NCBI GenBank assembly: GCA_038208905.1
Contig: JBBQYG010000013.1
Location: forward strand, 1-43,194
Source of the DNA: Candidatus Sumerlaeia bacterium
Lineage (GTDB): Bacteria; Sumerlaeota; Sumerlaeia; SLMS01
DNA length: 43,194 bases
Reading direction: 5' to 3'
Numbering within the stretch: the first letter of the stretch is position 1; each line of letters begins with the position of its first letter. This document shows, piece by piece, positions 7,751-43,194 of this stretch. The notes below the pieces were generated by a model. That model was not told the DNA's origin. It saw only the letters and a list, made by a program, of their open reading frames with translations, and made no database searches. Position numbers and translations under genes: made by a program.

Positions 7751-9946
7751 CTACTTTCCGGTCGAAACGACCGCCGTGACCCATCCGTCGAGTCCGGTTG
7801 TATAGACAACACCATCCTCCACCACGGGTGTCGAGTGGACAAAGAGCTTCGGTGAGACGCGGTAGCGCCAGGCAAGCGTTCCCGTCTCCGCGTCGGAAAC
7901 GCTCAGCAGGCCGATGCCACTCGTCATATAGGCGTAGCCACCTGCAATGGTGCCCGGGGCTGGAGTACGATCTCCGTTCGCGGTTGTGGTCCAGACCGGC
8001 GATCCATCGACGGCAATCATGCTCCAAGGCTTTTCCAGATTCCTAGTCAGCAGCCTCAAGCCATCCCCGCTGGCGGTGATTGCTGAGACATTCTCCGCAA
8101 TCTTGCCTACGTACTTTCCGTCCAGCGTATAGCGCCCGAGCCAATAGCCGCGGTCGGTCACGAAGATCGAATCGCCGAGCACAACCGGCGCGGTGTCGGC
8201 GGAGCCATAGTAGCGGACAAGTCGCTCCTGGCTGCGGGGGCTGGCCGTCTTCCATGCGGACTTTCCCGTCCTGCGGTCAACTGCGTGGAGATAGCCATCC
8301 CATGCGCCAAAGAGGAGCAGATCGCCCGCGATGGTCGGCGCCGCCTCGATGGCATAGTCGGGATCGGTATTGCGCCAGACCTCCTTGCCGGTCTCTGCGT
8401 TGAGCGCTATCAGGTCGGCGCCATTGGTGCCGAAATAGACGATGCCCTTTTCATCCACCGTGGGCGAGGAATAGACGCCCTTGGCGTCCTTCCATATCCA
8501 TGCCTCGTTGCCGTTTTCCAGCAGAGAGCGGAAGGTGCCGTCGGTTGCGCCAAACAGAATCTGGCCGCCATAGGTTGTGGCCGAGCCGATTACCTCTGCG
8601 CCGATCTCCTTCTTCCATCGCTCCTTGCCGTCCTTGGCGCGCAAGGAGTAGAAGGAGCCGTCGTTCGCTCCAACATAGAGGTTTCCATTATAGAGAAGTG
8701 GTGTCGCGCGCGAACCGCCGTCGAGTTGCGTCCTCCAGACCGCGCGGCCCTGACCGGGCGCGTTCTTGCGCTCCACGAAAAAGGAAACGCTGCGCTGATA
8801 CTTCCCACCGTCGGCGGTCTCGAAGCGAACGCGCAGGAAATGGGCGCCGTTGTCGAGGGTTGTGGTGTCTATCTTGCCGGTAGCCTTGCCGCTCCTGAGG
8901 GTCAGTTCGACGGTCTTCTCGTCGTCGATATCGGCAAAGACCTTGGGCGTTGTCGCATCGCCCAGCGAGGTGGAGACAGAGATGGAAAGCGAGTCGCCGG
9001 TATAGCGGCGCGACTCCCGGGGGGAGGAAAATTCGATGCGGGGATACGGCGCACCCGGAGCCAAGGGCTTGTGCAGGAGTTCCTTGGTCGCGTTCTCCTG
9101 GCCAAGGTAGCGATACACCACGGAGAGCATCCCCTTGTCCACGAGGCAGACGCTGTAGCCATCGACCGGATTGGCGGCGGCCTCCTTGGAGAAGGTTGAC
9201 CCGCCGTGGACTTCGTCGAGCTCGCCATAGGTCTTCTTATAGACAGCCGCGTGGTGATGTCCCACGAAGAGCGATACGACATTGTGACCGCGAAGGGCAT
9301 CAACGAGCCGATCCTTGTCATAGTTGGAGGCAAATCCATCGTTCTCCAGCGGATGATGGAAGAGGACGAAAACGGGGGCGGCGACTGGGATGCCGGCCAG
9401 TGTGCCCTTGAGGTACTCGATCGTTTCATGACTGAAGGAGGGGAGGGGATCCTGAATGGAGGCGCTGTTGAGGAAGATGAAGTGGACCCCCTCGTATTCG
9501 AAGGCATAGTTCACGCCGCCGTGGCGCCGCCGGAGCTCGTTATTGTCGGAGACCCAGGTATTGTCATGGTTCCCCGTGGTCCAAAACTGGGGGATGGAAA
9601 TTCCCCCGAAGTATTTGTCGTAAACGGCAAGCGTGGGATCGGGAAAGCCGTACTCCACCACGTCGCCCGTGAGCGCGACGAATTCCGGAGGTGGCGCGGT
9701 GATGCGCAGGGGCTCCAGCAGAACGGAGCCAAGGCCGACAATAGTGCGTATCGCCTTGTAGCTTCGCTGGTCATCAAGGCTGGCAGGCATTTCGAGGTGT
9801 GGCCCCAGATGCGGGTCGGATACGTGCAGGAAGGAGAACGTGCCGATCGGCTCGCGCGGAGGCGGTGGCGTTACCGCCGGCGGCGCCTGCGCGGGGGCGG
9901 TGCCGACAATGGCGAGGAGTAGCGAAACGGCGGCGATTTTTTTCAA
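7751..9946 (-). CDS. Secreted calcineurin-like metallophosphoesterase fused to an Ig-like domain and a PQQ/BamB-type beta-propeller
   Basis: Signal peptide (TTG start 9946 with GGGAG upstream; KKIAAVSLLLAIVGTAPAQA). Motifs HVSDPH, GDVVE, GNHD, FHHP, GHHH. C-terminal propeller repeats such as LIALNAETGKEVW and LHAVDRRTGKSAW. Confidence 0.88.
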   Translation of the reverse strand: MKKIAAVSLLLAIVGTAPAQAPPAVTPPPPREPIGTFSFLHVSDPHLGPHLEMPASLDDQRSYKAIRTIVGLGSVLLEPLRITAPPPEFVALTGDVVEYGFPDPTLAVYDKYFGGISIPQFWTTGNHDNTWVSDNNELRRRHGGVNYAFEYEGVHFIFLNSASIQDPLPSFSHETIEYLKGTLAGIPVAAPVFVLFHHPLENDGFASNYDKDRLVDALRGHNVVSLFVGHHHAAVYKKTYGELDEVHGGSTFSKEAAANPVDGYSVCLVDKGMLSVVYRYLGQENATKELLHKPLAPGAPYPRIEFSSPRESRRYTGDSLSISVSTSLGDATTPKVFADIDDEKTVELTLRSGKATGKIDTTTLDNGAHFLRVRFETADGGKYQRSVSFFVERKNAPGQGRAVWRTQLDGGSRATPLLYNGNLYVGANDGSFYSLRAKDGKERWKKEIGAEVIGSATTYGGQILFGATDGTFRSLLENGNEAWIWKDAKGVYSSPTVDEKGIVYFGTNGADLIALNAETGKEVWRNTDPDYAIEAAPTIAGDLLLFGAWDGYLHAVDRRTGKSAWKTASPRSQERLVRYYGSADTAPVVLGDSIFVTDRGYWLGRYTLDGKYVGKIAENVSAITASGDGLRLLTRNLEKPWSMIAVDGSPVWTTTANGDRTPAPGTIAGGYAYMTSGIGLLSVSDAETGTLAWRYRVSPKLFVHSTPVVEDGVVYTTGLDGWVTAVVSTGK

Positions 9947-9983
9947 GGCACGTGCTCCCGGCTGGAATAGATCCAAATCGTGG

Positions 9984-10062
9984 CGTCAAGCGCGCGAGCG
10001 TCCAGCGGAATGTGGATTTGTACATACGGAGAGAAGGCTTGCCTCATGGCGCGCGCTTGTCG
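9984..10062. promoter_or_regulatory. 13-bp imperfect inverted repeat in a divergent intergenic region
   Basis: CGTCAAGCGCGCG (9984-9996) and CGCGCGCTTGTCG (10050-10062) are 12/13 complementary with a 53-bp spacer. Function is inferred only. Confidence 0.35.
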
Positions 10063-10126
10063 ACAAAGACTCTCGCGCCTTGGAGGAGAACATCGCGCTG
10101 CCGTTAATTCCCGGGGAGAACTAATC

Positions 10127-12634
10127 ATGGTGCATTCGCGAATTGCGGCGATTGGGTGCATCGTGGCGCTCGTGCTCGTCGCCACGTTCGGCAAGTCGCG
10201 GGCCGCGGACACGGAGCGCAAGCTCGTCGATATCCCGGTTCCGGATCTCTTCGTGCTGAACTCCATCACGGAGTTGGGGCTCGACGTGTGGGAGATCCGG
10301 GACGGCGCGGCGTTGGCGTATATCGATGCGGGCGAGGAGGCGCGCTTGGCGGCCGAGGCAATCGCCTTCGTGCCGTCCTCCGCCTACTCCGCCGTCCCCG
10401 ATCCCAAGGGCACCCCGAGCTATCCAACCTTCGACGAGTACGTTGCCGAGATGCAAGCGTGGAGCACCACCTATCCAGAGATCACAAGCCTGTTCTCCAT
10501 GGGCCAGAGCGGAGAGGGGCGCGAACTGTGGGTTCTTAGAATTAGCGACAACCCGGCGGTGGACGAGGGCGAGCCGGAAGTGCTGCTGATGTCCCTCCAG
10601 CACGCGCGGGAGTGGCTTTCGGGCACGACCCTGCAGGGGATCGCGGAGCACATACTCTCAGGCTATGGAAGCGACCCCGACGCGACGGCGATTGTCGATG
10701 GAATGCAGCTTTACGTGATGCTGGTTTCCAATCCAGACGGCTATGTCTATACGCACACGACACAACGACTATGGCGCAAGAACCGCACGCCAAATAACGA
10801 CGGCACATTTGGCGTGGATCTGAACCGCAACTGGCCCTATCAGTGGAACACGGCGACCTCCCAAACTTCCAGCAACCTCTATCGTGGGCCGTCTCCCCTC
10901 AGCGAGCCTGAGAACATCGCGCTGAACAACTGGATCGCCTCCCGGGGGGAGAAGCTCCTCGGCATTCTCAACTACCATACCTATGGCCAGCTCATCATGT
11001 ATAGCTGGGCCTATACCACGGCCGATCCGCCAAACAAGGAAGCCTACGGTCCCGTCATCCGCGAGATGAAGAACCTGATCCTTGCGGCGGGCGGCGCGAC
11101 CTATACCGACGGACCGTGGGCACAGGCCCTCGGCTATGTCGGCGGAGGAACGACCGACGACTACGTCCACGCGGTGCTCGGCGTGCCCACGATCACGCTG
11201 GAGCTTCGGCCCGCGACCGAAAGCCAGGGCGGATTCACGCCGCCGACCACCTTCATCGAGCCGACACTGGCGGAGAACATCCCCGCCGCGATCTATTTCC
11301 TGAAATGGGTACTCGGCTCGGCGGACGGCGGCGAAGATTTCCGAATCGCCAACATCCGGGCGACCGCCGGAGCCACGACGATTCGTTTCGACTACGAGAC
11401 GAATCAGCAGGCGCGATGCGCCATCGAGTTTGGCCCGACTCCGGAACTGGGCCAAGTTATAGAGAACCTCAAGCTAAACGACCTGCGCCATATCACGACG
11501 CTGACCGGACTCACGTCCGGATCGGTTGTCCATGCACGCGTCCGGGCAGACCGCTATGGCGGGGGGCGGTACTATTCCAGCATCGTGCGGGTTCCACTCG
11601 AAGTTCAACCCGCCTCGCCGACTCTCCTCGCTGTGACAAGGGGGGGCGATCACCGGGTGCGGCTCTCATGGTCGCCGCAGGCGGGGGTTGCGGGATTCCG
11701 AATACAGGAGAGCCTCGACCGCTCGACGTGGACAACGGTTGCCGACGAGTCAATGGTGCTCGCCGCCGCCACCTCGATTGAGCTCAATATAGACAATGAG
11801 TTCTTGGTTCGCCACTATCGGATCGTCGCGGTATCGGCAACGCTCCTAGTGTCGGAGAGCGCGCCGAGCGATGTCTATTCGATCCTGCCAACGAATGATG
11901 CGCCGGGCATCCTGCTGGTGGACGGCTATGATCGGTGGAATGCGAAGGCGCCGCCGCAAGGGGGGAGCCAGGACTTCCTGACGGATGTTGGTGTCTGCGT
12001 GGCTGCGTATCCCGCTGGATTCGAGAGTTGCGCCAACGAGGCGCTGGGATCTGCCATCGACATTTCCGGGTATGGGACCCTGATCTGGATGCTCGGCGAC
12101 GAATCCACCGTGGATCGAAGCTTCACGCAGGGCGAACAGGCGATCGTGCGCGAGTTTCTGGAGGTGGGCGGCAACCTGTTCGTGACGGGCTCGGCAACGG
12201 CATTCGATCTGGGGCGCACGGGTGCAGCGGCGAACGACATCGCATTCCTGAGGGACTATCTGGGCGCGGGTTTCGTCGCGGAGAACCCCTCCGCCGACAC
12301 AGCCACGGGGGCCGGTGCGGGAACGCCGTTTGGCAGCCGTGTGATTCGCTTCAACGACAGCCGGTGGGGTACGTTTGGCGTAGCCTCTCCGGATACCATT
12401 TCCGCACAGGGTGGCGGAATCGTCGCATTGACCTTCGCCGGTGGCGCCGTCGCGGGCGTGCACGCGACCAGGCAGTTTGGCAACTCCGCAGAAACAGGCC
12501 GCGTCGTATTTTTTGGCTTCCCCTTCGAGCTCATCCTGACAGACTCCGCGCGCGAAGGAGTGATGGCCGATGTGCTGGACTACTTCGCCCATCAGAAGGT
12601 AGCGGTTCCCGAGTCATGGATGCTACTCTTCTAG
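10127..12634 (+). CDS. Secreted M14 zinc carboxypeptidase (carboxypeptidase T-like) with FN3-like domains and a C-terminal alpha/beta domain
   Basis: Signal peptide after ATG 10127 (GGAG RBS). HAREW, NPDG, WRKNR, GVDLNRNW, SEPE, HTY and TLEL motifs, followed by beta-rich FN3-like segments; ends ...AVPESWMLLF. Confidence 0.9.
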   Translation: MVHSRIAAIGCIVALVLVATFGKSRAADTERKLVDIPVPDLFVLNSITELGLDVWEIRDGAALAYIDAGEEARLAAEAIAFVPSSAYSAVPDPKGTPSYPTFDEYVAEMQAWSTTYPEITSLFSMGQSGEGRELWVLRISDNPAVDEGEPEVLLMSLQHAREWLSGTTLQGIAEHILSGYGSDPDATAIVDGMQLYVMLVSNPDGYVYTHTTQRLWRKNRTPNNDGTFGVDLNRNWPYQWNTATSQTSSNLYRGPSPLSEPENIALNNWIASRGEKLLGILNYHTYGQLIMYSWAYTTADPPNKEAYGPVIREMKNLILAAGGATYTDGPWAQALGYVGGGTTDDYVHAVLGVPTITLELRPATESQGGFTPPTTFIEPTLAENIPAAIYFLKWVLGSADGGEDFRIANIRATAGATTIRFDYETNQQARCAIEFGPTPELGQVIENLKLNDLRHITTLTGLTSGSVVHARVRADRYGGGRYYSSIVRVPLEVQPASPTLLAVTRGGDHRVRLSWSPQAGVAGFRIQESLDRSTWTTVADESMVLAAATSIELNIDNEFLVRHYRIVAVSATLLVSESAPSDVYSILPTNDAPGILLVDGYDRWNAKAPPQGGSQDFLTDVGVCVAAYPAGFESCANEALGSAIDISGYGTLIWMLGDESTVDRSFTQGEQAIVREFLEVGGNLFVTGSATAFDLGRTGAAANDIAFLRDYLGAGFVAENPSADTATGAGAGTPFGSRVIRFNDSRWGTFGVASPDTISAQGGGIVALTFAGGAVAGVHATRQFGNSAETGRVVFFGFPFELILTDSAREGVMADVLDYFAHQKVAVPESWMLLF

Positions 12635-12667
12635 GCTCGCAAGAGACTTCCCGCTAAGGATATCTTC

Positions 12668-14902
12668 ATGACACGACGCAGTTTTTGGCTCGCGCTGACG
12701 ACAGTCGCCGTTCTTCCCAGCATGGTTGCAGCGCAGTATCCGACGAGCGCGGGGTATTCGGAGGGTACCGACCTGGTGCTGGAGCGTTCGCTGGCCCGCG
12801 GCGTCACGCATCGCTTCGAGGCAAAGGCGGAGGGTCCCTTGACGATCAACACGCTGGAGTTCGACCCCAAGGATCCTCGCCTGCGACTCGAATCAGAGAA
12901 GGGTCATGCGAAGATGGGCGGCCGCGAGCCGGTGGGGGCCATGATGGAGCGCATCGCGACGGAGGACCTTCGCCCGATTGCGGGTATCAATGGCGATTTC
13001 TACGGGGGCGGCGGAGAGCCTGTCCACATGTTCGTGGACGAGGGTACAATCTGGCGCGGGCCGTGGACGCAGCGCAGCGAGGAAGGCACGAAAACGCGCC
13101 CAGTGGTGGCAGTGGATGCAGCGGGAAACTCCTTCGTCGGCACTCCGCGCTTCACGGCGAATCTGCGCGGCGGCGCGGGCGAGGTGCTGCTGATCGACAA
13201 GATCAACTTTCATGACAACGCCTCGCTGGCCACCGCATATACATGGGCCAAGGGCGAGCGCACTGCCGCGATCCGCGAAAACCAGTCGCAGATCGTGCTG
13301 GAACTGGCGACGCCGGAGTGGCTCCCCAACTCCCCCGCCACCGTCACGGTCAAGACCGTTGACCAAGGGCCCGACGCGGCGCTGACAAAGACGACCGTCG
13401 TGATCCACGCCGACAACCCGATTCCCAATTGGATCGCAGCCGACGCGAAGCTCACGCTCGACGCGCGATTCGAAGGACTCCCCGGCAAAGTGACTGCGGT
13501 GATGGGCGGGCTCCCCCGCCTGATCGACAACGGCGTGAAGGATCCCAAGCGATTCGGCGCCGAGGACGCTGCGGGCGCGACATTCGTTACCGACCTTCAT
13601 CCGCGCACCGGCGTGGGCCGAAAGCCCGATGGAACGCTGGTTTTCGTCACCGTGGATGGTCGCCAGCCCAGGCGCAGCCGCGGCATCGACTTGATCGATT
13701 TCGCCGACTACTTCGAGTCGATCGGCTGCACCGATGCGGTCAATCTGGACGGTGGCGGATCGACGACGATGGTGACTCGCGGGGAGGTCGTCAACTTTCC
13801 GTCGGATCCTGGCGGCTCGCGGTCTGTCAGCAACGCACTCATCCTCAGCCGCACGGGTCCTCGCGGCCCGCTTGCGAAGATTGCCGTGCTACCGCCCGGC
13901 GCCATCGTTCCCGTGGGGAGCATCGTGACTTTCAAAGTAGAGGGCTACGACGCGGAGGGCGAGCAAGTTCCGCTGACCGCCATGCCCCGCATCGAGTACC
14001 GGGAGGGGAAGTCCACCACGCCGTTCACAGAGAGCGTGTCCTTCACGAAGGCAGGCACGGGTACCGTGGTCGCCACGATGCCGGGCGAGAAGCCCATCAT
14101 GGCCGTTACGACGGTGCAGGCAATGGTGCCCGCGACGGTGCGCCTGCATCCGCGGACGCTGCTGCTGGACCGCGGCGCGGCGAAGCAGGTCTCCTTTGAG
14201 CTGACCGGAAAAGCCGGTGAGCGATTCCACCCCAACTTTGCGCCAGCCGACGTGACAATTCCCGACTGCGTTGCTTTCGACGCGGAGACGAGGACGGTTA
14301 CGGCCAAGGGCACGGGATCGGGAGTCATCAAGTTCATGTTCGGCGAGGTGGTTGCCGAGCTCCCCGTGGCGGCGGAGACATACGCAACCTCCATCGCGGA
14401 TTCGTTCGAGGCAGCGCCCAGGCTGCCGCTGGAACTGCTCCGCGCCAATGACGCGAAGACGACGCTGACGCTTGATGCTTCGCGCTCCCGCGACGGCGCG
14501 GCGAGCTGGAAGCTGGACTATGCGATGCGGCCGGGCGGCGTGACCAAGATCGGCGTCAACATGGCGGTCGAGCTCCCCGGCGATCCGATCGAAGTGGGCC
14601 TGTGGGTCTATGGCGATGGCAACGCCCAGTGGCTGCGAGGCGACCTCAAGGATTCGCGGAATCTGACCTACAAGATGGACTTCACGGATTCGGCCAACGG
14701 GATCGACTGGAAGGACGAGTGGAAGTTCCTGCGCGCGTCGATCCAGGACGCGGGGAGCCTTGGCGGCGGTGTGCCACCGCCCACCCCCCCCTATCGCCTG
14801 GTGAGCGTGTACATCGCCCAGCCCCAGGAGGCCGCCAAGCGCGACGGCACCATTTGGATCGACGCGGCCACGGCGATTGCCCTTCCCGCGGGGGCTCCAT
14901 GA
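12668..14902 (+). CDS. Secreted phosphodiester glycosidase (NAGPA-family) protein with Ig-like and C-terminal CBM-like domains
   Basis: Signal peptide; GINGDFY, HPRTGVG, VTVDGRQ, AVNLDGGGSTTM, NFPSD...RSVSNAL; C-terminal beta domain with GLWVYGDG...WLRG and IDWKDEWK. Confidence 0.88.
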   Translation: MTRRSFWLALTTVAVLPSMVAAQYPTSAGYSEGTDLVLERSLARGVTHRFEAKAEGPLTINTLEFDPKDPRLRLESEKGHAKMGGREPVGAMMERIATEDLRPIAGINGDFYGGGGEPVHMFVDEGTIWRGPWTQRSEEGTKTRPVVAVDAAGNSFVGTPRFTANLRGGAGEVLLIDKINFHDNASLATAYTWAKGERTAAIRENQSQIVLELATPEWLPNSPATVTVKTVDQGPDAALTKTTVVIHADNPIPNWIAADAKLTLDARFEGLPGKVTAVMGGLPRLIDNGVKDPKRFGAEDAAGATFVTDLHPRTGVGRKPDGTLVFVTVDGRQPRRSRGIDLIDFADYFESIGCTDAVNLDGGGSTTMVTRGEVVNFPSDPGGSRSVSNALILSRTGPRGPLAKIAVLPPGAIVPVGSIVTFKVEGYDAEGEQVPLTAMPRIEYREGKSTTPFTESVSFTKAGTGTVVATMPGEKPIMAVTTVQAMVPATVRLHPRTLLLDRGAAKQVSFELTGKAGERFHPNFAPADVTIPDCVAFDAETRTVTAKGTGSGVIKFMFGEVVAELPVAAETYATSIADSFEAAPRLPLELLRANDAKTTLTLDASRSRDGAASWKLDYAMRPGGVTKIGVNMAVELPGDPIEVGLWVYGDGNAQWLRGDLKDSRNLTYKMDFTDSANGIDWKDEWKFLRASIQDAGSLGGGVPPPTPPYRLVSVYIAQPQEAAKRDGTIWIDAATAIALPAGAP

Positions 14903-31498: not shown

Positions 31499-34400
31499 TC
31501 ACGGATCCCGTATATCTCCGGCATCGACCAAACTATCGCCATTCCGATCAAACGTGGCATTACTGGCGATCCTGCCGGTCAGGGCGTCGATAATCTGACG
31601 CGCCGTGGCGCCGGTGGTCGTCGGCGTCACGGTGACAGGCGAGGTGGCACTGGCCGTTGGGGGTTGGGCGGTGGCCGAGGGCCCGGTGGTGGATGATGGC
31701 TGGGGGGTGGATGAGGCCGTGGGCGTGGCAGTATCTGTCGGCGAGGGGGACGTGGTGAGAGTCGTGCCCGTCGGGCTCGCCGTCGCGCTCTCGGTTGGCT
31801 CCGGTGTCGAGGTGGCTGTGGCGCTTGGCGTGGCAGTCCCGGTGATCGTTGCGCTCGGGGTCGCCGATGATGTGGGAGATTCAGTGGGCGGTAGGGTCGC
31901 AGTGGCGGAGCTGCTTGGCGATGGTGAAGCAGTAGGCGAAGCCGTCGCCGAGATCGACGCCGTTGCGGTAGCGCTCGCGGTGACAATCGGAGTGGCCGAC
32001 GGGCTCGGCGAAGAGATGGCGCCGCTGCCGTTTACGTCGAGCGTGATCGAGAATCCGAATGTGCCTGTGCCCGAGACCTCGACCTGATGGGTCTTGGCGA
32101 GATTTCGAGGGGTGTTGGTGGTGCCGTCTCCCGCCGCGGGATTGAATTGGGCGGTACCGAATTCCACGGCGACCGCGGCGTTGGTTGTGGTGTTGCGAAG
32201 CTCCGCGCGCGTGGCATCGGAGGTGAAGCTCAGCGCAGACTGGCCAGTCTCCAGCACGTTGAGAAGATCGCCCACCAGCCCGTTGCGTATATACAGCCTC
32301 CCGCGGTCCGGGTTCAGCTGATAGTTTACATGCAGGGCTGCCGAACCATCCCTTAGGACCACCGTCCGGCTGATCTTACCGTCGCCCGAAGCAAAAGAAA
32401 CCGTCGATCCGCCAGGTCCGCCGCCCGGAAGCGCATCATCAATGAACACGGTCCGGACATCGTTTACGTACTGGCTTGTCTGAGCGGTCTCAGCCCAGCG
32501 GTCGTGCAGGATCGAGATCCTGCGCGCTCCGACATCTGCGTCCGTCTCCCACTCGTCATCCCGGTCGGGGAAGCCAACTAGATTCCCACCAAGGACGGCT
32601 ACTTGACCCGTGGATGGATTGCGTCCCACCAGGAGTATCAGTCGCCCGCCGTCATTCTCGAAGACGGCAAAGACCCTGTCGTTGAAAAGTAGAAATTCCA
32701 TCTCGCTGTCGTGGTCGATGTCCGACATCATCGAGACGGAGACAGCGGCTGGGCTCGATGATGCCCACTGAGCTGCCCGAGTCAGCAGCCCCACCTTGCG
32801 CAGGTTGTGGAACTGCTGGTCCTTGGCAAACTGTGCGATGGCGTCGGGGCCATTGTCCGTGCGGCAGTTGTACGTGCCATCGGGGCACCGCTCCGCGTCG
32901 GTCTCGTCGTGCCATGCGGTCTCAAACGTTGCCGTGCTATATCCGATGCGGGCGAGCCTGCGCAGCGGGTTGTCGATTCCCGGACCATAGACCGAATCGA
33001 AGACATCCTGAGCGATCGTTCCCGGCCCGCTGGTGGTTTGGCGTCCAGCTGTCGCCGCATAGGTTGTCAACGCACCGAAGGGCTTCGTCCCTCGCGAGTT
33101 GAGATCCTGCCGAATCCAAGGGGCGAACCCGTCGAAATCCTCCTCGATGGAGTTGCCGTGATACCAGTTCTGATAGTTCCCCTGGGTGGCGAAGTTGAGG
33201 AAGTCGTATGACTCGAACGGAAGATCGATGTTGTCCCCGCGATCGATGGGCGTCCAGCCGCGACTCGCCACGTCCTCCAGCGTCACGATCTCGATCCATG
33301 GCTTGTTGGCAAGCCAGCGGATGTTGGTGTTGAAGTTGTCGGGATTGTCGGTCCCTTGATTGAAGCTGAGGAACGAGCGCCCCGCATAGGCCTCCCAGTC
33401 GTCGAAGACAAGGAGGACCTGCTCTTGATCGCCGGAACGGGCGAGGTCAATCAGCGTGCGCCGTGTGTCGAACCACAGGCCGCCATCGCTATTGGCAAAC
33501 TTGAATCTGTCGGCGTCGTCGTTGATCATGAACGCGCCAACCCCGTTGATGCGGTTTATCTTGTACTTGCCCGCCTGCTCGGCGGCGGCGCCATACCACT
33601 TTCTCAAGTGATCGATCTGATCGAGAATCGTGAACCGATAACCGGTGGCGACGAGATCGGCGAAGGTGCGCCCGCGAGCAACGCGCTCGGGAATCCAGAA
33701 GAGCGCGCTATCGGTGGGCGGGCCGATTCCCAGAACAGACTGGAGATAGTCGTCGTTCAGCGCGATGGAGTCCTGGTTCATCGTGCCTTCGAAGAATGGC
33801 ATGATGTGCTCGGAGTAAACGCCCCAAATGACGGCGCCCTCTCCGTTGGTGGAATCGCCGTCGAGGAAGTCGGCGATCTCCCTAACGAAGGAGGGCCCAT
33901 CATCGGGCGCATCCGGGTCGGCCTTGGCGGCCCACATGGCGGATGAAAGGAGAGTCGCGCTGACGTGGATGTTCGGCGCGGCGCCAAAGATACGCGCCGA
34001 TTCAAGGGCCCGGCGGTATCCCGTTGGGTTGCCGCCGGGTGTGGTTACGGTGGTGTTGTGGACCAATTGCTGAATATAGTCCGCCGGGCTGATCGCCTGA
34101 TTCCCGTGCAGGACATAAGCGAACTTTGCCGTGGGGCAGGAGGATGTACTCGCGATCGACCCCGAATCGGGAAGTCGATCAGCGAGCGCCGGATTGAAGT
34201 CGCGGGTTGTGCCGATCTGGAAGTTGATCGACGACACGCCATCCCAGCCGTTCTCGGTCAACAGGGCGCGGTCGATGCCCAACTCCACCGCGTCGAGGTC
34301 GGAGCGATAGTAAGCGCCGCGAAACCGCAGAGCGTTGGAATCCTGACTGGAAAGCACGTTGCCATTCGCGGCGCGGATGTTCCAGAACTGGCCACTGTAA

Positions 34401-37400
34401 AGCGCCAGCGAAAGGTCCCATTGCTCGGCGACGGCGCCATTGACGCCATCGGGCCAGGCCGTCGCGCCAACGGTTGGGGTGCCGAAGTCCATGAGCACAT
34501 AGAGGTCGAGCACGCTGTTCTCCGCCTCTAGGAAGAGATCGAAGAAATCGGCGCGCATGTAGAAGGTTCCCGCCTCATCGTCGTCAAAGCTCGAGAACGA
34601 AACGAGATCGCGGGCGTTCTCTCCCCCGCCGAGATTCACGGAGTCGCCGTAGGCGTCGATCGCGCGGCAATCGCCATACTCCCAGTCCTGAAGCTCCTCG
34701 AAAAAGACCTGGCCAGCCGTCTCCCCGATCTGATCTCCGGGGCCGATGGTGATGCGCCGGGAGGCCGGCGGCGGGGTGACTGTTGGAGTTGCGGAAGGCG
34801 GCGGCGTGGTGGGAGCGGTGGTTGAGGCAGGCGTGGTCGTCGTCGGGGGCGGAGTGGTCGCCGTCAGCGACGGAGTCGGCGATGCGGCCGTACAGAGCGA
34901 GACTCCGGTAACGACCTCAACGAACTCGGTGCCGTCGATGTTGCCGTTCCCGTTCTGCGTCGGCGGCGACTGAATCTGGAGAGCGCCTGCGTCGTTTGTA
35001 CCATAGATTCCGAGCGCAACGAAGGCGGACCCTGTCCCAACGAGGTTCTTGCGGATGGCGCCCTCTACGAACACGCCATTGCGTGCGTGGACGTAGCTGG
35101 CCGCGGAATCGGCGAGCTGGTTCTGGGTTGCGCCGTACCAGCTCGAGAAGTTGCCGCCGTTGCCTTCCACCGCGAGGAAGTGGCTCCACGTGCCGACCTG
35201 TCCCGCCTTGGCCCAGTTTACGTTGATGAGCGTAGTTGGATCGGGAGACAGATAGACAAAGTGGTCGTTGGGGAGTGATCCATTGGCGGCGATGTAAAGC
35301 CATCCGTTGGCCTCGGCAACGTATAGACGTCCTGTTCCATCCACATCGCACGCGTTGGAATCAAGCGTGCCGTCCATAGCGAAGGGATTGGCGTCGGGGG
35401 CGACGGTGGGCGTCGCAACGGGATCGCCCGTGGTGACGAATGTCCAGTCGCCACCGCCGTTGTTGTCCCACTGGCCAGCGTTCCCGGTGCCTGCGGTGGT
35501 GAAGACCATCTTGAGGTCCAATGCGTCGGGATCGACGGTGAAGGTGTGGGTCCACTTGTCCCCGCTCAGGATCATCGCGGGGCGCGGGGTCTGGGCGCCT
35601 CCGACCCAGTTGTTCTTGCCAAGGTGGATATGCACCTCGGGGGAACTGGCGAGGGGACGTCCGGCGGGATCGTAGGTGATTGCCACCTGCTCGCCGCGCA
35701 CGGGGGGGTTGGGCTCCGCGACAACGACCGTGCCGCCTCCTCCACCAGTGGAACCCGATCCATCGCCGATATAGACGTGCTGGATGTCGGACTTGGTGAC
35801 GTTGCCGGTGCTGTCGGTCGCCTCGACATAGTAGTCGATCAGTACACTGCGCAGGCCGGTGATCGGGGCGGAATAGTGCCGCGCGATGTGGTTTGGAAGG
35901 ATGAAGTAGTCCAACCCGCCCTTGCCATAGATGTTCGTCATCGGGAACTCCCGCCCGGCCATGGGAAGGCTCACCCAGCTCCCAACTTCGGCGCCGCCGG
36001 CGAACGTCTCGTTTTGGTTGGTGGAGAGCGGATTGGCGCCGTCGGCGTCTATACGGTACTTCAGCACCGCATCGACGGGACCAGCGGTGTCGGAGACGAA
36101 AGTCCAGATGTGGAAATCGCCGTTGTTGATATACTGGCGCCCTGGATAGAGCGTCGCGTTGCCGGCATAGGCGACGCCGAAGTTAAGGCTGCCGGGATTC
36201 CAGGGAAAGCGCTGGGGCACCCATACCGTCGGCTTGGTCGCATCGGCGGAGCCACCGGCAATGATCGGATCGACAAGGCGCGCGACTTCGTTGGCGCCGA
36301 GCGTTCCCTTGATCTCGAAATCTTCGACGGTGCCATAGTACACGTTGCCAGAATCGAACGAGGCCAGGTGGTAGTGCCACGCGCGGTCGATGGGATGCGT
36401 TCCCGCGTCGGGCGTCATGATCTTAGCCATGTTGCGCGTATATGCGGGGGTAACCTTTTCCGCCGCCAGGATGCGCTGCTCCGCGGCGACGAAGATCGCC
36501 ATCTCGCGTACCTTCTCGTGCCATCCATTGACGGGGTCGTGGTTGCCGCTGGCATCAAGCAGGGGATAGTTCCAGTTGATGAAACTCGGCGATCCGAAGT
36601 CGCCATCGGCGTTCACCCACGCCCCATCCTCCACGTGGATAACCTTCGCCGCACTGGGCGGAAAATCGTGGAGATACTGCTGGATCGACGTCACCCCGTT
36701 GCCGAGCGCGTTCGCGGAGTTGGCGAGCGCGGAGACGTTCTCCATGTAATAGCTGAACCCGCCGGCATAGGCGTTGTCGCCGTCGTGGGACATGAGCACC
36801 AGCGAGGGTTGGGCGGGATTGTTTCGCGCCTCCAGCCGTTGCAGGAAGTTGGTGCCGATGGGGCCGTATCCTTCGAGCCATCCCGTCGCCTGATCCGCCG
36901 GGACGGCGATGAGGAAATCCTCCACGCCCGTTTCGGGATTCACGCGCTTCATGTAGGACGGCTGATAGGAGAGCGGATTCGCGTTCACTGGCGAGCAGCC
37001 GCGCTGGATCGTCTCGCGGATGAACTCGACGCCCGCGGGATTGATCTGGTCCGCGGAGTTGGGCGGGTCGCAACCGACGCCACCGCTGCCGAGAACGACC
37101 GGGAAGTCCGGGCAAGCGCGCGCGATGTGCTCGCCGCTGACGATGCTCCACTCGATGCCGAGGTCCTTGAGGATCGGGATCAGGCGAGTCGAGAAGGCCA
37201 TCTCCGTGGGAAAAAAGCCCTTGCTGATGGAGTCGGCGCCGAACTCGCGCTTGAGGATCTCCTGCTGGAGGCGGATCGACATGCTGCTGGTCTCGGCGGG
37301 AAGCAGCGCCAGAAGGCCGTGGTGCGCGGAGAAGTTGGTGAACTCCAGCCGCTTGTAGCCGCTGGCCGTCGTCCAGTCGTTTGCCTGGTTCAGGGCACCG

Positions 37401-37819
37401 TTCCAGCCGGGCGAAAACCCAAGTTGGCTGGCGTCGCCGATGCTGTTTACGTTCTCGATCAACGCCCCGGAGTAGCTGACCGCCACGCCAGACCGGGTGT
37501 ATCCGCCGATGGTGCCGAGGGAATCGCGCATCCGAAACTGATAGGCCGCAATGCGATCATCGAGGCCGAAGATCCCGCGTAAGTCGTTGGTCGGATGAGG
37601 ATCGCCGCCATCCTTTTGCTGGATGGACTCCCAGGCGAACTCCACACGGTCGGGGGCGCCAGCGGCGCGAGAGGGTCCGTTCCAGTAGTTGGGCTGGTGA
37701 ACGTGCCAGTGCCACGACATCTGGGGGCGTGTGGTGGGCTGGGCAAAGGCGACACCTGCCGAGGTGGAAATCAGGACGGATGCGGCGGTGCCCAGCGAGT
37801 AGGAGCTCAGTCGTTTCAT
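31499..37819 (-). CDS. Giant secreted alpha-glucan-active enzyme (~2106 aa) with two GH57/GH119-type domains, a starch-binding CBM, Thr/Pro linkers and a dockerin-like tail
   Basis: Signal peptide MKRLSSYSLGTAASVLISTSAGVAFA (ATG 37819). Domain 1: HWHVHQP, FFPTEMAF, SHDGDN. CBM-like VAITYDP...HLGKNNW...WDNNGGGDW. Domain 2: VLHGNQ, FWIPERV, TILDQ, FDDWEAYAG. Tail DRNGDSLVDAGD. Confidence 0.88.
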   Translation of the reverse strand: MKRLSSYSLGTAASVLISTSAGVAFAQPTTRPQMSWHWHVHQPNYWNGPSRAAGAPDRVEFAWESIQQKDGGDPHPTNDLRGIFGLDDRIAAYQFRMRDSLGTIGGYTRSGVAVSYSGALIENVNSIGDASQLGFSPGWNGALNQANDWTTASGYKRLEFTNFSAHHGLLALLPAETSSMSIRLQQEILKREFGADSISKGFFPTEMAFSTRLIPILKDLGIEWSIVSGEHIARACPDFPVVLGSGGVGCDPPNSADQINPAGVEFIRETIQRGCSPVNANPLSYQPSYMKRVNPETGVEDFLIAVPADQATGWLEGYGPIGTNFLQRLEARNNPAQPSLVLMSHDGDNAYAGGFSYYMENVSALANSANALGNGVTSIQQYLHDFPPSAAKVIHVEDGAWVNADGDFGSPSFINWNYPLLDASGNHDPVNGWHEKVREMAIFVAAEQRILAAEKVTPAYTRNMAKIMTPDAGTHPIDRAWHYHLASFDSGNVYYGTVEDFEIKGTLGANEVARLVDPIIAGGSADATKPTVWVPQRFPWNPGSLNFGVAYAGNATLYPGRQYINNGDFHIWTFVSDTAGPVDAVLKYRIDADGANPLSTNQNETFAGGAEVGSWVSLPMAGREFPMTNIYGKGGLDYFILPNHIARHYSAPITGLRSVLIDYYVEATDSTGNVTKSDIQHVYIGDGSGSTGGGGGTVVVAEPNPPVRGEQVAITYDPAGRPLASSPEVHIHLGKNNWVGGAQTPRPAMILSGDKWTHTFTVDPDALDLKMVFTTAGTGNAGQWDNNGGGDWTFVTTGDPVATPTVAPDANPFAMDGTLDSNACDVDGTGRLYVAEANGWLYIAANGSLPNDHFVYLSPDPTTLINVNWAKAGQVGTWSHFLAVEGNGGNFSSWYGATQNQLADSAASYVHARNGVFVEGAIRKNLVGTGSAFVALGIYGTNDAGALQIQSPPTQNGNGNIDGTEFVEVVTGVSLCTAASPTPSLTATTPPPTTTTPASTTAPTTPPPSATPTVTPPPASRRITIGPGDQIGETAGQVFFEELQDWEYGDCRAIDAYGDSVNLGGGENARDLVSFSSFDDDEAGTFYMRADFFDLFLEAENSVLDLYVLMDFGTPTVGATAWPDGVNGAVAEQWDLSLALYSGQFWNIRAANGNVLSSQDSNALRFRGAYYRSDLDAVELGIDRALLTENGWDGVSSINFQIGTTRDFNPALADRLPDSGSIASTSSCPTAKFAYVLHGNQAISPADYIQQLVHNTTVTTPGGNPTGYRRALESARIFGAAPNIHVSATLLSSAMWAAKADPDAPDDGPSFVREIADFLDGDSTNGEGAVIWGVYSEHIMPFFEGTMNQDSIALNDDYLQSVLGIGPPTDSALFWIPERVARGRTFADLVATGYRFTILDQIDHLRKWYGAAAEQAGKYKINRINGVGAFMINDDADRFKFANSDGGLWFDTRRTLIDLARSGDQEQVLLVFDDWEAYAGRSFLSFNQGTDNPDNFNTNIRWLANKPWIEIVTLEDVASRGWTPIDRGDNIDLPFESYDFLNFATQGNYQNWYHGNSIEEDFDGFAPWIRQDLNSRGTKPFGALTTYAATAGRQTTSGPGTIAQDVFDSVYGPGIDNPLRRLARIGYSTATFETAWHDETDAERCPDGTYNCRTDNGPDAIAQFAKDQQFHNLRKVGLLTRAAQWASSSPAAVSVSMMSDIDHDSEMEFLLFNDRVFAVFENDGGRLILLVGRNPSTGQVAVLGGNLVGFPDRDDEWETDADVGARRISILHDRWAETAQTSQYVNDVRTVFIDDALPGGGPGGSTVSFASGDGKISRTVVLRDGSAALHVNYQLNPDRGRLYIRNGLVGDLLNVLETGQSALSFTSDATRAELRNTTTNAAVAVEFGTAQFNPAAGDGTTNTPRNLAKTHQVEVSGTGTFGFSITLDVNGSGAISSPSPSATPIVTASATATASISATASPTASPSPSSSATATLPPTESPTSSATPSATITGTATPSATATSTPEPTESATASPTGTTLTTSPSPTDTATPTASSTPQPSSTTGPSATAQPPTASATSPVTVTPTTTGATARQIIDALTGRIASNATFDRNGDSLVDAGDIRDP
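31600..32020 (-). repeat. Low-complexity Thr/Pro/Ser/Ala-rich linker (~140 aa) within the giant enzyme
   Basis: Translation SPSPSATPIVTASATAT...PTASATSPVTVTPTTT. A second, shorter linker lies at about 34760-34890. The DNA is not a perfect tandem repeat. Confidence 0.85.
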
Positions 37820-37981: not shown

Positions 37982-38151
37982 GCCGGGTCCTGGATTCGGG
38001 GCGCCACGGCGGCTGCCCATTTCCGTGGACCCGATGGCGTGTGTGCAGGTCCATCAGCAGGCGCTGATCGGGCCGTGATGCTCGACTTCGCAGTCGCGCT
38101 GTGGATTGCTTCACAAGTCCAATGGCAACGCCCACCCGGGTCTCGTGATCA

Positions 38152-38700
38152 ATGCAGATTTACAGCCGTGCGAATTCCCTGCCTTTCCTGACGCTGGGCA
38201 TAGCTCTTACGGGCGGTGTCCTCGCGGGCCCGCAACCCACGCCCACCTGCGCGCCCAGTACTCCCGAGTACCCGCCGATTGCGGAGTTGCGATACGGATT
38301 CGCGTACTTCGGCCGGGAAGAGTTTGATTTGGAGATCGTCTTCGGCGAGTATGCGGGTTCCTGCGGGCTGCGCCCGGAGCCCGATCCCGTGGTGGCGGAG
38401 TGCGTTGGGGCCGAGTTGCCGTGCCTGATCGATGGCGCAGTTACTTGGAACTCGCGACTGCCGGGTGATCGGCTGCGCTTCCAAGCGGCTGGGCCGGGGA
38501 TTGCAGTGTTCGAGATCATACCGCATCCGGACTTCCGGCGGAACGATCCCGATGAGCCGGGTATCTTTGCGGCGATTAGGGTCTTCGCCCTGGCTTCGGA
38601 GCTTAATAGCGCCGCACTCCGAGGCGATGCGTTGGTGCCTGCGGGCCGCGACCTCAACGGCGATGGAATCGTGGATGCTGCCGACTTGATGTTTGATTAA
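38152..38700 (+). CDS. Secreted hypothetical protein with a C-terminal dockerin-like Ca-binding motif
   Basis: Signal-like N-terminus (LPFLTLGIALTGGVLA), four Cys, ends LRGDALVPAGRDLNGDGIVDAADLMFD. Confidence 0.7.
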   Translation: MQIYSRANSLPFLTLGIALTGGVLAGPQPTPTCAPSTPEYPPIAELRYGFAYFGREEFDLEIVFGEYAGSCGLRPEPDPVVAECVGAELPCLIDGAVTWNSRLPGDRLRFQAAGPGIAVFEIIPHPDFRRNDPDEPGIFAAIRVFALASELNSAALRGDALVPAGRDLNGDGIVDAADLMFD

Positions 38701-38736: not shown

Positions 38737-39603
38737 CTACATTTCCCAGGGCTTCAGCAAGTCCTTGATCGTCCGATTGTAGCGGACGCTGTCCATGCGT
38801 TCCTTCTCCGAGGAACTCTCGTGGACTTGGAGGTCCTTCCATGTGCGGGGCTTGGAGGACTTGTTGTCGGCGGCGGCTTCGTCGCGGCGAGTTTCGAAGG
38901 AGAGGATGACATCATAGAGGCTGTTTGCGAGGAGCGCCGTGCCGGAGAATCCGAAGACCAGAAACCCCGCCATGCGGAGGAGCAGTCCGCCAATGAGGGA
39001 CAAAAGAATCAGCACAAACACGGCGCCAAGCACGGTGCCCGGATACTTGATCAGAATCGCGAGGCTGATGCGGAAGACGCGGCGGATGGCAGGCTGGGGC
39101 TCCGCGAGGAGAGGAAGCGCGGGGAGCAGCGTGATAGCGACGAGCACCGCGGCCCAGAAGCAGAGCCCCGCCGCCAGGTATCCGGGAATCCGCATCGCAT
39201 CGGGGAGGCGTCCGCTGAAGACATAGAACCATGCGTTGAAGAGGAGCACGGCAATCGCCGCGAACATCACCAGGAAATAGCGCCACGCCGGGAGAAACAG
39301 ACGGAACAGGCCGCGGCGGAATTCCGCGAAGTTGGGGTCCTTCTCCGCCGAGACTAGCCGTGCGAAGTGCGCCAGCGGCGCGACCCACAGCGCCATCCAG
39401 ATCGGCCCGATCACAACAATCGCCCCGAGCAGCGTGGCCACCGCGAGCAGTGGCGTGGCGGCGGAGACGAACGCCGCGATGATGATGCCGATATACAGCA
39501 GCGCGCCACCGAGCAGGAGCGCCAGAAGCACGTTGATTGCGATCAGCCGACCCAGATGGTCGTAGGAATCCCAGAGCCATTGCTTGAGGACTTGGCCGAT
39601 CAT
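38737..39603 (-). CDS. Integral membrane protein, DUF624/YesL-like
   Basis: WDSYDHLGRLIAINVLL start, about six TM segments, charged C-terminal tail; in apparent operon with the CBS/CorC genes. Confidence 0.65.
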   Translation of the reverse strand: MIGQVLKQWLWDSYDHLGRLIAINVLLALLLGGALLYIGIIIAAFVSAATPLLAVATLLGAIVVIGPIWMALWVAPLAHFARLVSAEKDPNFAEFRRGLFRLFLPAWRYFLVMFAAIAVLLFNAWFYVFSGRLPDAMRIPGYLAAGLCFWAAVLVAITLLPALPLLAEPQPAIRRVFRISLAILIKYPGTVLGAVFVLILLSLIGGLLLRMAGFLVFGFSGTALLANSLYDVILSFETRRDEAAADNKSSKPRTWKDLQVHESSSEKERMDSVRYNRTIKDLLKPWEM

Positions 39604-42567: not shown

Positions 42568-43194
42568 CTATTCGGGGAGGATCCCCATCCCCGCCAGCAC
42601 CAGATCGGCGGCATCGATGGTGCCGTCGCCATTTCGGTCCTGCCTCATCGAAAGCGCACCATGGCATCCCTCAATCAGCGACATGTTGACCGCCGCCGTC
42701 AGGATGCCTTGGGTCCCCACGAAATCGCCGATTCCATAGCCCGGGCGCTGCGACTCGGGATCAGGCATCAGCAACGGACGATAGAGCCACCAGGTATGTG
42801 TGGAGATGTCCAGCTCCAGGCACTCGGGGAAGTATCCCTCCAACTCGATGCAGATCAGCAGGCTGTCGGTCCCCAGCTCCTCGCCGAGGTAGTGGGAATA
42901 GGGTAGGTGGTCCGACTGCTCGAGTTCGCCCCAGCGCACCAATGCGAGGGCGCCGGGCAGATTGCCGGGGACTCCGTCGGTGTAGGGAAATACGAAGTCG
43001 GGCGGAGCGCCGGGGAGGGGGGTCGAGGTCAGGTACACCGTCGTCGTGCTGGCGCGGTCCCGCTCCGAGAAGGGGAGCGCGTTCAGGCTGGTGGCGAGCC
43101 CGGGGTGCGTCTTCGACTCCCCGATGTAAGGAATAACGCTTACATAAGATAGCGTCAGGGTGGGGGAAGCATCCAGGCGACGGGGCCGGGCGCC
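42568..43194 (-). CDS. Hypothetical protein with a C-terminal dockerin-like motif; 5' end lies beyond the window
   Basis: The frame of the 42568-43038 ORF stays open to 43194 (GARPRRLDASPTLTLSYVSV...). Ends QDRNGDGTIDAADLVLAGMGILPE. Confidence 0.7.
   Translation of the reverse strand, partial: GARPRRLDASPTLTLSYVSVIPYIGESKTHPGLATSLNALPFSERDRASTTTVYLTSTPLPGAPPDFVFPYTDGVPGNLPGALALVRWGELEQSDHLPYSHYLGEELGTDSLLICIELEGYFPECLELDISTHTWWLYRPLLMPDPESQRPGYGIGDFVGTQGILTAAVNMSLIEGCHGALSMRQDRNGDGTIDAADLVLAGMGILPE

Follow-up and report, generated by a model that had tools for sequence, protein, structure and literature searches.

The window analysed here, a stretch of 43,194 nucleotides from a Candidatus Sumerlaeia bacterium, carries the gene P0001, whose reading frame proved to be intact, in agreement with a sequence-only reading of this DNA that had described a single gene for a protein of ~2100 residues (Table 1). 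The motifs named in that reading were all located at the positions it had given. The start at 37819 is favoured by the third-position GC, which is 0.70-0.85 within the gene and drops to 0.48 upstream, and by a 99% identical database copy that is also 2106 residues long; on the same grounds an upstream ATG at 38020 was ruled out as the start. A 678-residue ORF on the opposite strand (35546-37582) shows a mirror codon pattern and was taken as a shadow. Neither a sigma-70 promoter nor a terminator pattern was found upstream of the gene. The gene is tiled by contigs of four runs with no indels listed. In run X2, the joint 31801-34497 has a shorter side of just 21 letters and lies between Thr/Pro-rich stretches. 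The datasets listed as containing this DNA are metagenomes from fresh water, sediments and mats, with no RNA dataset among them. The nearest relatives belong to Sumerlaeota. With the protein as a query, the single-sequence PDB search gave no significant match and NCBIfam no match; the sequence is absent from the ESM Atlas, where the homologue P0006 led to unnamed and GH57 clusters only.

Table 1. Gene P0001 and its features (window coordinates; all on the minus strand).
Feature	Position	Residues	Basis or remark
Whole gene P0001	31499-37819	2106 + stop	ORF free of internal stops
Putative Sec signal peptide	37742-37819	1-26	Ends A-F-A; by eye and hydropathy
D1 catalytic barrel and helical bundle, GH119-like	36245-37741	27-525	PF03065, AF2, Foldseek
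D1 HWHVHQP motif	37691-37711		
D1 Glu206	37202-37204		
D1 SHDGDN motif	36773-36790		
D1 Asp346	36782-36784		
Beta-domain conserved with D1	35762-36244	526-686	All-beta in model
CBM25/CBM53-type starch-binding module	35420-35731	697-800	Pfam and profile matches
Unclassified module B1	34895-35407	805-975	In a subset of homologues
Thr/Pro linker 1	34763-34888	978-1019	
DOMON-like/CBM9-fold module	34136-34762	1020-1228	Travels with D2
D2 catalytic barrel	33230-34135	1229-1530	AF2, profile match, hhalign
D2 VLHGNQ motif	34097-34114		
D2 Glu1378	33686-33688		In FWIPERV
D2 FDDWEAY motif	33386-33406		
D2 Asp1474	33398-33400		
D2 helical bundle	32750-33229		CSR-5-like TATFETAWH at 32909-32935
D2 C-terminal beta-sandwich	32024-32749		DxDxD loop at 32696-32722
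Linker 2	31610-32023	1933-2070	Ser/Thr/Pro/Ala-rich
Dockerin-like tail	31502-31609		Single calcium loop DxNxDxxVDAxD

The protein is likely exported, judging from a signal peptide recognised by eye; the same N-terminal pattern recurs in the homologues, and the protein has no further hydrophobic segment. The CBM25/CBM53-like module, expected at ~35430-35720, was recovered with nearly the same borders: it scored 27.6 bits with Pfam CBM53 (PF16760), which equals the cut-off of 27.6, and the D1 profile matched the PDB CBM25 chains 2c3v (E 3e-5) and 2laa (E 0.003). Pfam returned only a weak EF-hand match for B1 (E 0.049) and no match for the beta-domain associated with D1. The DOMON-like module precedes D2 in most homologues, and VIA-align superimposed it on the C-terminal part of glucodextranase (1ulv; Z 14.7, rmsd 2.8, 168 aligned) and on Sas6 (7uwu; Z 14.6, rmsd 2.9, 182 aligned). 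The tail profile detected 17 ORFs in the same genome, with the motif at the C-terminus in 13; Dockerin_1 matched the end of a 4040-residue relative. A comparison of profiles A3 and A4, in which the match was limited to shared C-terminal tails, was uninformative. The helical bundle and C-terminal beta-sandwich of D2, the second Ser/Thr/Pro linker and the dockerin-like tail had not figured in the sequence-only reading.

The proposal that the protein combines two different GH57-clan domains, each with an intact Glu/Asp pair, held up in per-domain structure prediction, and none of the results that the sequence-only reading had named as refuting it was obtained. Both regions were modelled by AF2 as GH57-like barrels of seven strands (pLDDT 88.4 for D1 and 93.9 for D2), and the best PDB matches of both are GH57 enzymes. 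Their mutual identity is only about 16% and the hhalign probability 15.5, so that a tandem duplication of one domain was ruled out. The two pairs align on the catalytic pair of 4-alpha-glucanotransferases and are conserved in the D1 rows and in the D2 rows fused to D1. D1 scored 46.8 bits with Pfam PF03065, and its top Foldseek match in the PDB was 7e1y (E 9.8e-15). The alignment of Glu206 and Asp346 was made on canonical GH57 4-alpha-glucanotransferases; both residues, together with HDGDN, are invariant in 122 of 122 D1 rows, while HDGDN occurs in none of the 1,602 catalogued GH57 rows, which makes the acid motif distinct from those of the catalogued GH57 groups. The D1 motifs resemble what we take to be those of GH119, and by this likeness D1 would be a retaining endo-alpha-amylase. 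GH119 is an alpha-amylase family related to GH57 (PMC6037648, PMC10647339). No named GH119 enzyme was present among the matches listed by the plasmid tblastn, the genome scan and the distant-paralogue search.

In the D2 model the seven barrel strands are followed by helices, and Asp1474 stands at the end of the seventh strand. The five top rows of VIA-align were all GH57-family chains (Z 22.9-29.1), Foldseek matched a GH57 enzyme at E 1.1e-19, the profile matched 1k1w at E 1.8e-9, and hhalign against 20 canonical 4-alpha-glucanotransferases gave a probability of 99.1. The WIPERV of D2 aligned on the WLTERV of 1k1w and, in hhalign, on WLAERV, which corresponds to the Glu nucleophile after beta4; FDDWEA aligned in hhalign on ADDGEK, that is, on the Asp proton donor at beta7. 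CSR-1, -3 and -4 and the segment after beta3 aligned as well; CSR-5 was out of register in hhalign and was set by eye on TATFETAWH. Over model residues 212-909, the superposition on 1k1w covered 489 residues (Z 28.3, rmsd 8.8, identity 16%), and the C-terminal beta-sandwich with its DxDxD loop is shared with this structure. In this protein D2 went unrecognised by PF03065, which scored above the cut-off in the D2 regions of several homologues. Glu1378 is conserved in 58 of 58 D2 rows, so that, as for D1 with its 122 rows, the motifs are no chance occurrence.

The likeness of D2 to the alpha-amylases and the 4-alpha-glucanotransferases of GH57, as suggested earlier, held only in part: its nearest relatives are indeed 4-alpha-glucanotransferases, but it fails the fingerprints of both groups. 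The D2 motif set matched none of the 1,602 catalogued GH57 sets. WxPERV was found in 17 of these rows, all of them 4-alpha-glucanotransferase or "like" rows, and the CSR-5 of D2 ends in WH, as in the 4-alpha-glucanotransferase group; however, this CSR-5 reads TFETAWH and not QCNxAYWH, and AWH occurs in none of the 1,602 rows. At fingerprint position 23, the Lys of DDGEK is replaced by Ala1477 (Ala in 22 of 23 D1-fused rows), whereas the basal members of the D2 lineage retain it (xDDWEK), and a Trp takes the place of the Gly found beside the acid in 4-alpha-glucanotransferase. The motifs are also unlike the amylopullulanase CSRs of the LDGEN type. By the published fingerprints, D2 is thus placed outside the alpha-amylase and 4-alpha-glucanotransferase groups. 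Its lineage comprises 287 cluster representatives at E<=0.001 and appears never to have been assayed as an enzyme.

The search for this architecture across genomes, which the sequence-only reading had recommended, revealed the D1-D2 fusion in 17 further distinct proteins and, within the phylum, in 10 of 75 genomes. Of these phylum genomes, D1 is present in 24 of the 25 that have D2 and in 10 of the 50 that lack it, an association overstated by these counts because kin are not independent. The two domains reside in separate ORFs in 14 of the 24 genomes having both, so that fusion is not required, although some of these cases may be assembly breaks. The tree of D1 disagrees with that of D2, which indicates that the pairing arose more than once. 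The partners of D2 are of the amylolytic type, D1, GH13, or both (G036, G041), and GH13 triad motifs were found in 40 of 44 giant D2-bearing proteins. The D2 Asp is kept in 23 of 23 D1-fused rows (28-61% identity), as are the Glu and the motif residues, vs. 8 of 45 GH13-fused rows. No conserved operon was detected around the relatives (9 loci; 35 of 79 called ORFs scanned), the neighbours being mostly unrelated; at one locus, in G046, a cyclomaltodextrinase-like gene adjoins the fusion (437 bits, below the cut-off of 540). That the fusion itself is an assembly chimera of two adjoining genes is hardly conceivable. No single contig of the four runs spans the whole gene, and many relatives carry D1 and D2 as two distinct genes, but contigs from X1 (33492-35304) and X3 (34884-36100) bridge the inter-domain region without indels, and the chimera is already refuted by independent homologues (P0003, P0004, P0005 and P0008; 57-66% identity) with the same order D1-CBM-B1-DOM-D2.

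Taken together, the data make it probable that both GH57-clan domains are active and act on alpha-glucans. The explanation we prefer, tentatively and at slightly less than an even chance, is an exported degrader of starch or glycogen that unites an endo-amylase, D1, and a dextrin hydrolase, D2, in one chain. D1 would make internal cuts in alpha-1,4 chains, and the resulting short or branched dextrins would likely be hydrolysed by D2, while the CBM25/53 and DOMON-like modules may capture the substrate and the putative dockerin-like tail may serve as a tether. The reaction of D2 is the least certain part. Since its Asp is lost in most GH13-fused rows and in no D1-fused row, the retention here is informative. 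The missing Lys-23 and QCNxAYWH favour a hydrolase over a transferase; a hydrolase also gains from family f3, where all 11 genomes encode separate canonical 4-alpha-glucanotransferases and 7 of the 11 have D2 as well, and from the resemblance of the DOMON-like module to part of glucodextranase, and amylase plus pullulanase is the known two-domain pattern according to PMC7410926. Against this two-step hydrolysis stand the Lys kept in the basal D2 lineage, the dissimilarity to amylopullulanase CSRs, the absence of sugar-uptake genes near the fusion gene in the window and the fact that the nearest characterised relative of D2 by profile and Foldseek is a transferase.

The last observation leads to a secreted glucanotransferase, which would disproportionate or cyclise the maltodextrins released by a D1 amylase into dextrins poorly used by competitors. 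The top profile and Foldseek match, the T. litoralis 4-alpha-glucanotransferase, extends from the barrel to the C-terminal sandwich including the DxDxD loop, and the restricted occurrence of WxPERV, the WH end of CSR-5 and the cyclomaltodextrinase-like neighbour in G046 point in the same direction. Nevertheless, we find this rather unlikely given Ala at position 23, Trp beside the acid, a structure-level identity of just 16%, a neighbour of this kind in only 1 of 9 loci, and a search of the own genome with PF09094 (the middle domain) that gave no match. That D2 acts on another linkage or a different glycan, for instance dextran, mixed or alpha-1,3 alpha-glucans or a non-glucan alpha-glycoside, thereby widening the substrate range, is quite unlikely: the unmatched motif set, the DOMON-like module resembling part of a dextran-degrading enzyme, and the existence within GH57 of alpha-galactosidases and a related group also having a C-terminal beta-domain (PMC6037648) would fit, yet D2 co-occurs with D1 and is fused to amylase-type domains and starch-type CBMs. 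It is distinctly improbable that D2 lacks a catalytic function and serves to bind glucan or as a spacer, as it probably does in GH13-fused relatives, leaving one working enzyme. GH57 "like" proteins without catalytic residues do exist (PMC6037648), and the module is retained in the 37 of 45 GH13-fused rows that lost the acid and hence has a value without the Asp; in this protein and its D1-fused relatives, however, Glu, Asp and the motif are invariant. The most novel view, doubtful but deserving consideration, sees in D2 a new secreted GH57-clan branch whose reaction has no precedent among family members so far, such as a new linkage specificity or the extracellular synthesis, by a glucanotransferase, of cyclic or branched dextrins for private use. 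This branch would have been plugged repeatedly behind GH119-like or GH13 amylases in uncultured phyla, giving single-chain "amylosomes" of 2,000-4,000 residues, and would have become a pseudoenzyme in one lineage.

The finding exposes a GH57-clan lineage overlooked by Pfam in this protein and without a matching group in the 2018 GH57 survey. The D2 domains, fused vs. free and acid-intact vs. acid-lost, provide natural controls for function assignment. If both barrels work, the enzyme would point to the way in which starch or cyanobacterial glycogen is used by Sumerlaeota in mats and sediments, an ecology that we infer. As for the two-domain architecture, we found no published description or characterised example of it in open-access full text, in line with the earlier reading, to which the characterised members had a single such domain.

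Among known systems, D1 is closest to the alpha-amylases of GH119, a family founded on a member from Bacillus circulans: presumably they share the GH57-type barrel, the Glu/Asp pair, HDGDN and a starch-type CBM behind, but in D1 a second catalytic domain follows. The T. litoralis GH57 4-alpha-glucanotransferase (1K1W/1K1X) has the same order of barrel, bundle and C-terminal beta-sandwich as D2, as well as the WxxERV nucleophile motif, the acid register, the DxDxD loop and the WH end of CSR-5. D2 differs from it in CSR-1 (HGNQA), CSR-4 (FDDWEAYA, without Lys-23) and CSR-5 (TFETAWH), shows 13-16% identity to it, and, unlike it, is preceded by a DOMON-like module within a signal-peptide protein. 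The GH57 amylopullulanases (S. marinus 7E1Y, A. aeolicus 9JLR) rank first or equal first among the fold matches of the two barrels, and the HDGDN of D1 resembles their xDGEN motif, but they have one catalytic centre and different CSR fingerprints. The two-domain alpha-amylase-pullulanases belong to GH13; in this protein, PF00128 (GH13) found no match. According to PMC7410926, amylolytic enzymes with two catalytic domains are already known in GH13, and the alpha-amylase-pullulanases combine, within a single chain, two catalytic domains with starch-binding modules, just as here. If both of its seven-stranded GH57-clan barrels work, the Sumerlaeota protein would be the GH57-clan counterpart of these GH13 enzymes.

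The minus-strand reading frame that ends at 31499 encodes 2106 residues from an ATG at 37819, and the catalytic motifs of two tandem GH57/GH119-type domains, as listed in the sequence-only reading, were all recovered at their positions. An alternative upstream start at 38020 was rejected: the 67 additional codons have a third-position GC of 0.48, versus 0.70-0.85 within the gene. The database copy is likewise 2106 aa long, with 12 residue differences. Contigs of four runs, the best-matching of which may be the source sample itself, covered 30, 29, 30 and 30 of 30 bins of the gene with no indel listed; no single contig contains it whole, and the inter-domain region is bridged by pieces. The nearest named relatives are Candidatus Sumerlaeota, and the neighbours in the window are housekeeping genes (aconitase, thioredoxin-like protein, ketoacyl synthase, HemN-like protein, CBS/CorC proteins).

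The GH57 Pfam match of the protein is confined to the first barrel, D1 (46.8 bits, aa 155-230). The AlphaFold model of aa 27-800 (mean pLDDT 88.4) has seven barrel strands, with Glu206 following strand four and Asp346 strand seven, and Foldseek placed GH57 enzymes on top (7e1y, E 9.8e-15; 1k1x, E 9.2e-14), GH38 mannosidases being interspersed lower. With aa 29-690 as a query, 489 long proteins were retrieved, and most of the 120 listed carry CBM25, CBM26 or CBM53 modules; here, the module after D1 matches solved CBM25 domains. Glu206 and HDGDN are unchanged across all 122 aligned D1 rows. The motif set resembles that of GH119, of which D1 is a candidate member. HDGDN occurs in none of the 1,602 GH57 rows in Table S1 of PMC6037648. 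A second D1-like subfamily (HHDGDNY/HSDGDNH, 27-37% identity) has 255 long relatives; the fusion of its member P0299 to a distant D2 adds another independent case of the pairing.

The second barrel, D2, retrieved 49 long proteins (query aa 1230-1935) and, with an E-value of <=0.001, 287 cluster representatives, of which 150 were listed. A 57-row D2 profile matched the T. litoralis 4-alpha-glucanotransferase 1k1w (E 1.8e-9), with WvPERV aligned on WLTERV and a second, weak piece covering the DxDxD loop of the C-terminal beta-sandwich. The model of aa 1020-1935 (pLDDT 93.9) ranked 1k1x first in Foldseek (E 1.1e-19). VIA-align gave a tie: 9jlr scored Z 29.1 over 340 aligned residues (rmsd 3.5), and 1k1w scored Z 28.3 over 489 (rmsd 8.8), the latter alignment extending across barrel, bundle and sandwich. 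The N-terminal module of the model aligned with glucodextranase 1ulv (Z 14.7) and Sas6 7uwu (Z 14.6). When compared by hhalign with 20 canonical 4-alpha-glucanotransferases, drawn from 23 loci in the phylum, D2 reached a probability of 99.1, with FDDWEA placed on ADDGEK; SHDGDN of D1 matched the same Asp, and D1 versus D2 reached just 15.5 (16% identity). HGNQ, DDWE and AWH are each absent from those 1,602 GH57 rows (PMC6037648). D2 is predicted to be a GH57-type enzyme, closest to the transferases yet outside their group.

Both domains exceeded 100 bits in 21 of 445 proteins, of which 17 remain when the window protein and its copy are set aside together with two cluster mates. The search across genomes suggested by the sequence-only reading bore out the architecture: D1 and D2 are joined in one ORF in 10 of 75 Sumerlaeota genomes, read out directly in G003, G033, G036, G041, G043, G046, G053 and the own genome, and judged by contig, strand and frame length in G002 and G050. 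D1 occurs in 34 genomes and D2 in 25; 24 have both, 10 D1 alone and one, 80% complete, D2 alone, counts that include kin genomes and are not independent. In G066, the sole single-contig genome with both, they are separate genes ~1 Mb apart. A GH13-like domain with catalytic motifs, giving no Pfam detection, sits between D1 and D2 in G036 and G041. In P0053, a CBM48, GH13 and C-domain unit is joined to D1 where D2 would stand.

Features of the window and of related loci
Feature	Location	Strand or source
Three large genes of hydrolase type: a metallophosphoesterase carrying a PQQ-type propeller, an M14 carboxypeptidase and a NAGPA phosphodiester glycosidase	window 7751-14902	
288-aa membrane-type ORF that matches no family and lies downstream of two CBS/CorC genes	window 38737-39603	(-)
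Dockerin-like tail sites/ORFs	window 38152-38700; 42568-43194; 31502-31609	(+); (-); (-)
D1 + GH13-like + D2, many CBM25/53, Dockerin_1 match at end, 4040 aa	L035:2616-14735	G036
D1 + GH13-like + D2, many CBM25/53, 3437 aa	L034:2027-12337	G041
Second D1-like subfamily	L124:764-3907; L123:3449-5572; P0299	G030; Thiodictyon plasmid, WP_100923212.1;
Internal tail motif after D1 part	~aa 896-1161	P0051, P0052, P0054-P0058, P0062
Single-case neighbour: cyclomaltodextrinase-like GH13	L038:13972-15549	G046
Single-case neighbour: LacI/MalI-type regulator	L039:2874-4025	G053
Single-case neighbour: sodium-solute symporter	L035:945-2450	G036

The D1-D2 pairing is repeated in evolution. In the D2 tree (135 rows), D1-fused rows are spread over several clades, intermixed with free forms, and in AU tests on 22 fused proteins each of the two trees, D1 and D2, is rejected by the other (p 3e-47 and 1.5e-4, with only 2,000 replicates and FastTree topologies). 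The D1 of the window protein is sister to those of P0051, P0052 and L039 (67-69% identity), the D2 of which is a different subtype (35-37%). In these three, the dockerin-like tail is internal, directly after the D1 part, the arrangement that extension of a complete D1 gene would leave; the internal motif is likely a relic of a stand-alone D1 gene. After a short helix, and often behind a Thr/Pro linker, the single-loop tail, with the motif DxNxDxxVDAxD, closes 13 ORFs of the own genome and is possibly an anchoring or sorting tag. P0006 and P0007 end in a short Trp-type tail instead.

In a separate clade of ~2,800-aa proteins, two of which bear the names Kiritimatiellia and Chthoniobacterales, D2 is placed behind a GH13 domain. 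The D2 acid position is Asp in 8 of 45 GH13-fused rows, in all 23 D1-fused rows (window protein and copy included) and in 57 of 67 others, and GH13 triad motifs are present in 40 of 44 GH13-fused proteins. The D2 of this clade (P0012-P0046 and relatives) is likely a pseudoenzyme lineage. The 1,000-aa middle region of these proteins is uncharacterised.

The protein thus unites two barrels, two acid pairs and a starch-type binding module. It would be exported, with D1 as an endo-amylase cutting through the retaining Glu/Asp mechanism that PMC6037648 gives for GH57, and D2 would act on the products of D1. For D2, hydrolysis of dextrins is the reading that we prefer, at somewhat below even chances; homology favours transfer, which is rather unlikely. 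The altered fingerprint, the presumed export and the canonical transferases carried separately by seven D2-bearing genomes of one family (f3) argue for hydrolysis, as does the known pattern of amylase-pullulanases, which have two catalytic domains (PMC7410926). Against dextrin hydrolysis count the absence of a conserved operon in the neighbourhoods of nine relative loci and the unfused state of D1 and D2 in 14 of the 24 genomes with both. Action on another substrate is improbable, and a D2 without catalysis still more so.

In the accessible part of a Sumerlaeota genome paper (PMC8092238), GH57 amylases come up a single time, with no mention of GH119 or the D1+D2 architecture, and the fusion is absent from the parts seen of PMC11046441, PMC13163881, PMC10647339, PMC12093494 and PMC5010890. 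No published description was found in the open-access full texts searched. Taken together, the architecture is real and conserved, and its most valuable part is the apparently unassayed GH57 lineage of D2. By the fingerprints published in PMC6037648, D2 resembles the 4-alpha-glucanotransferase group in WxPERV and the terminal WH but differs from it in lacking Lys-23.
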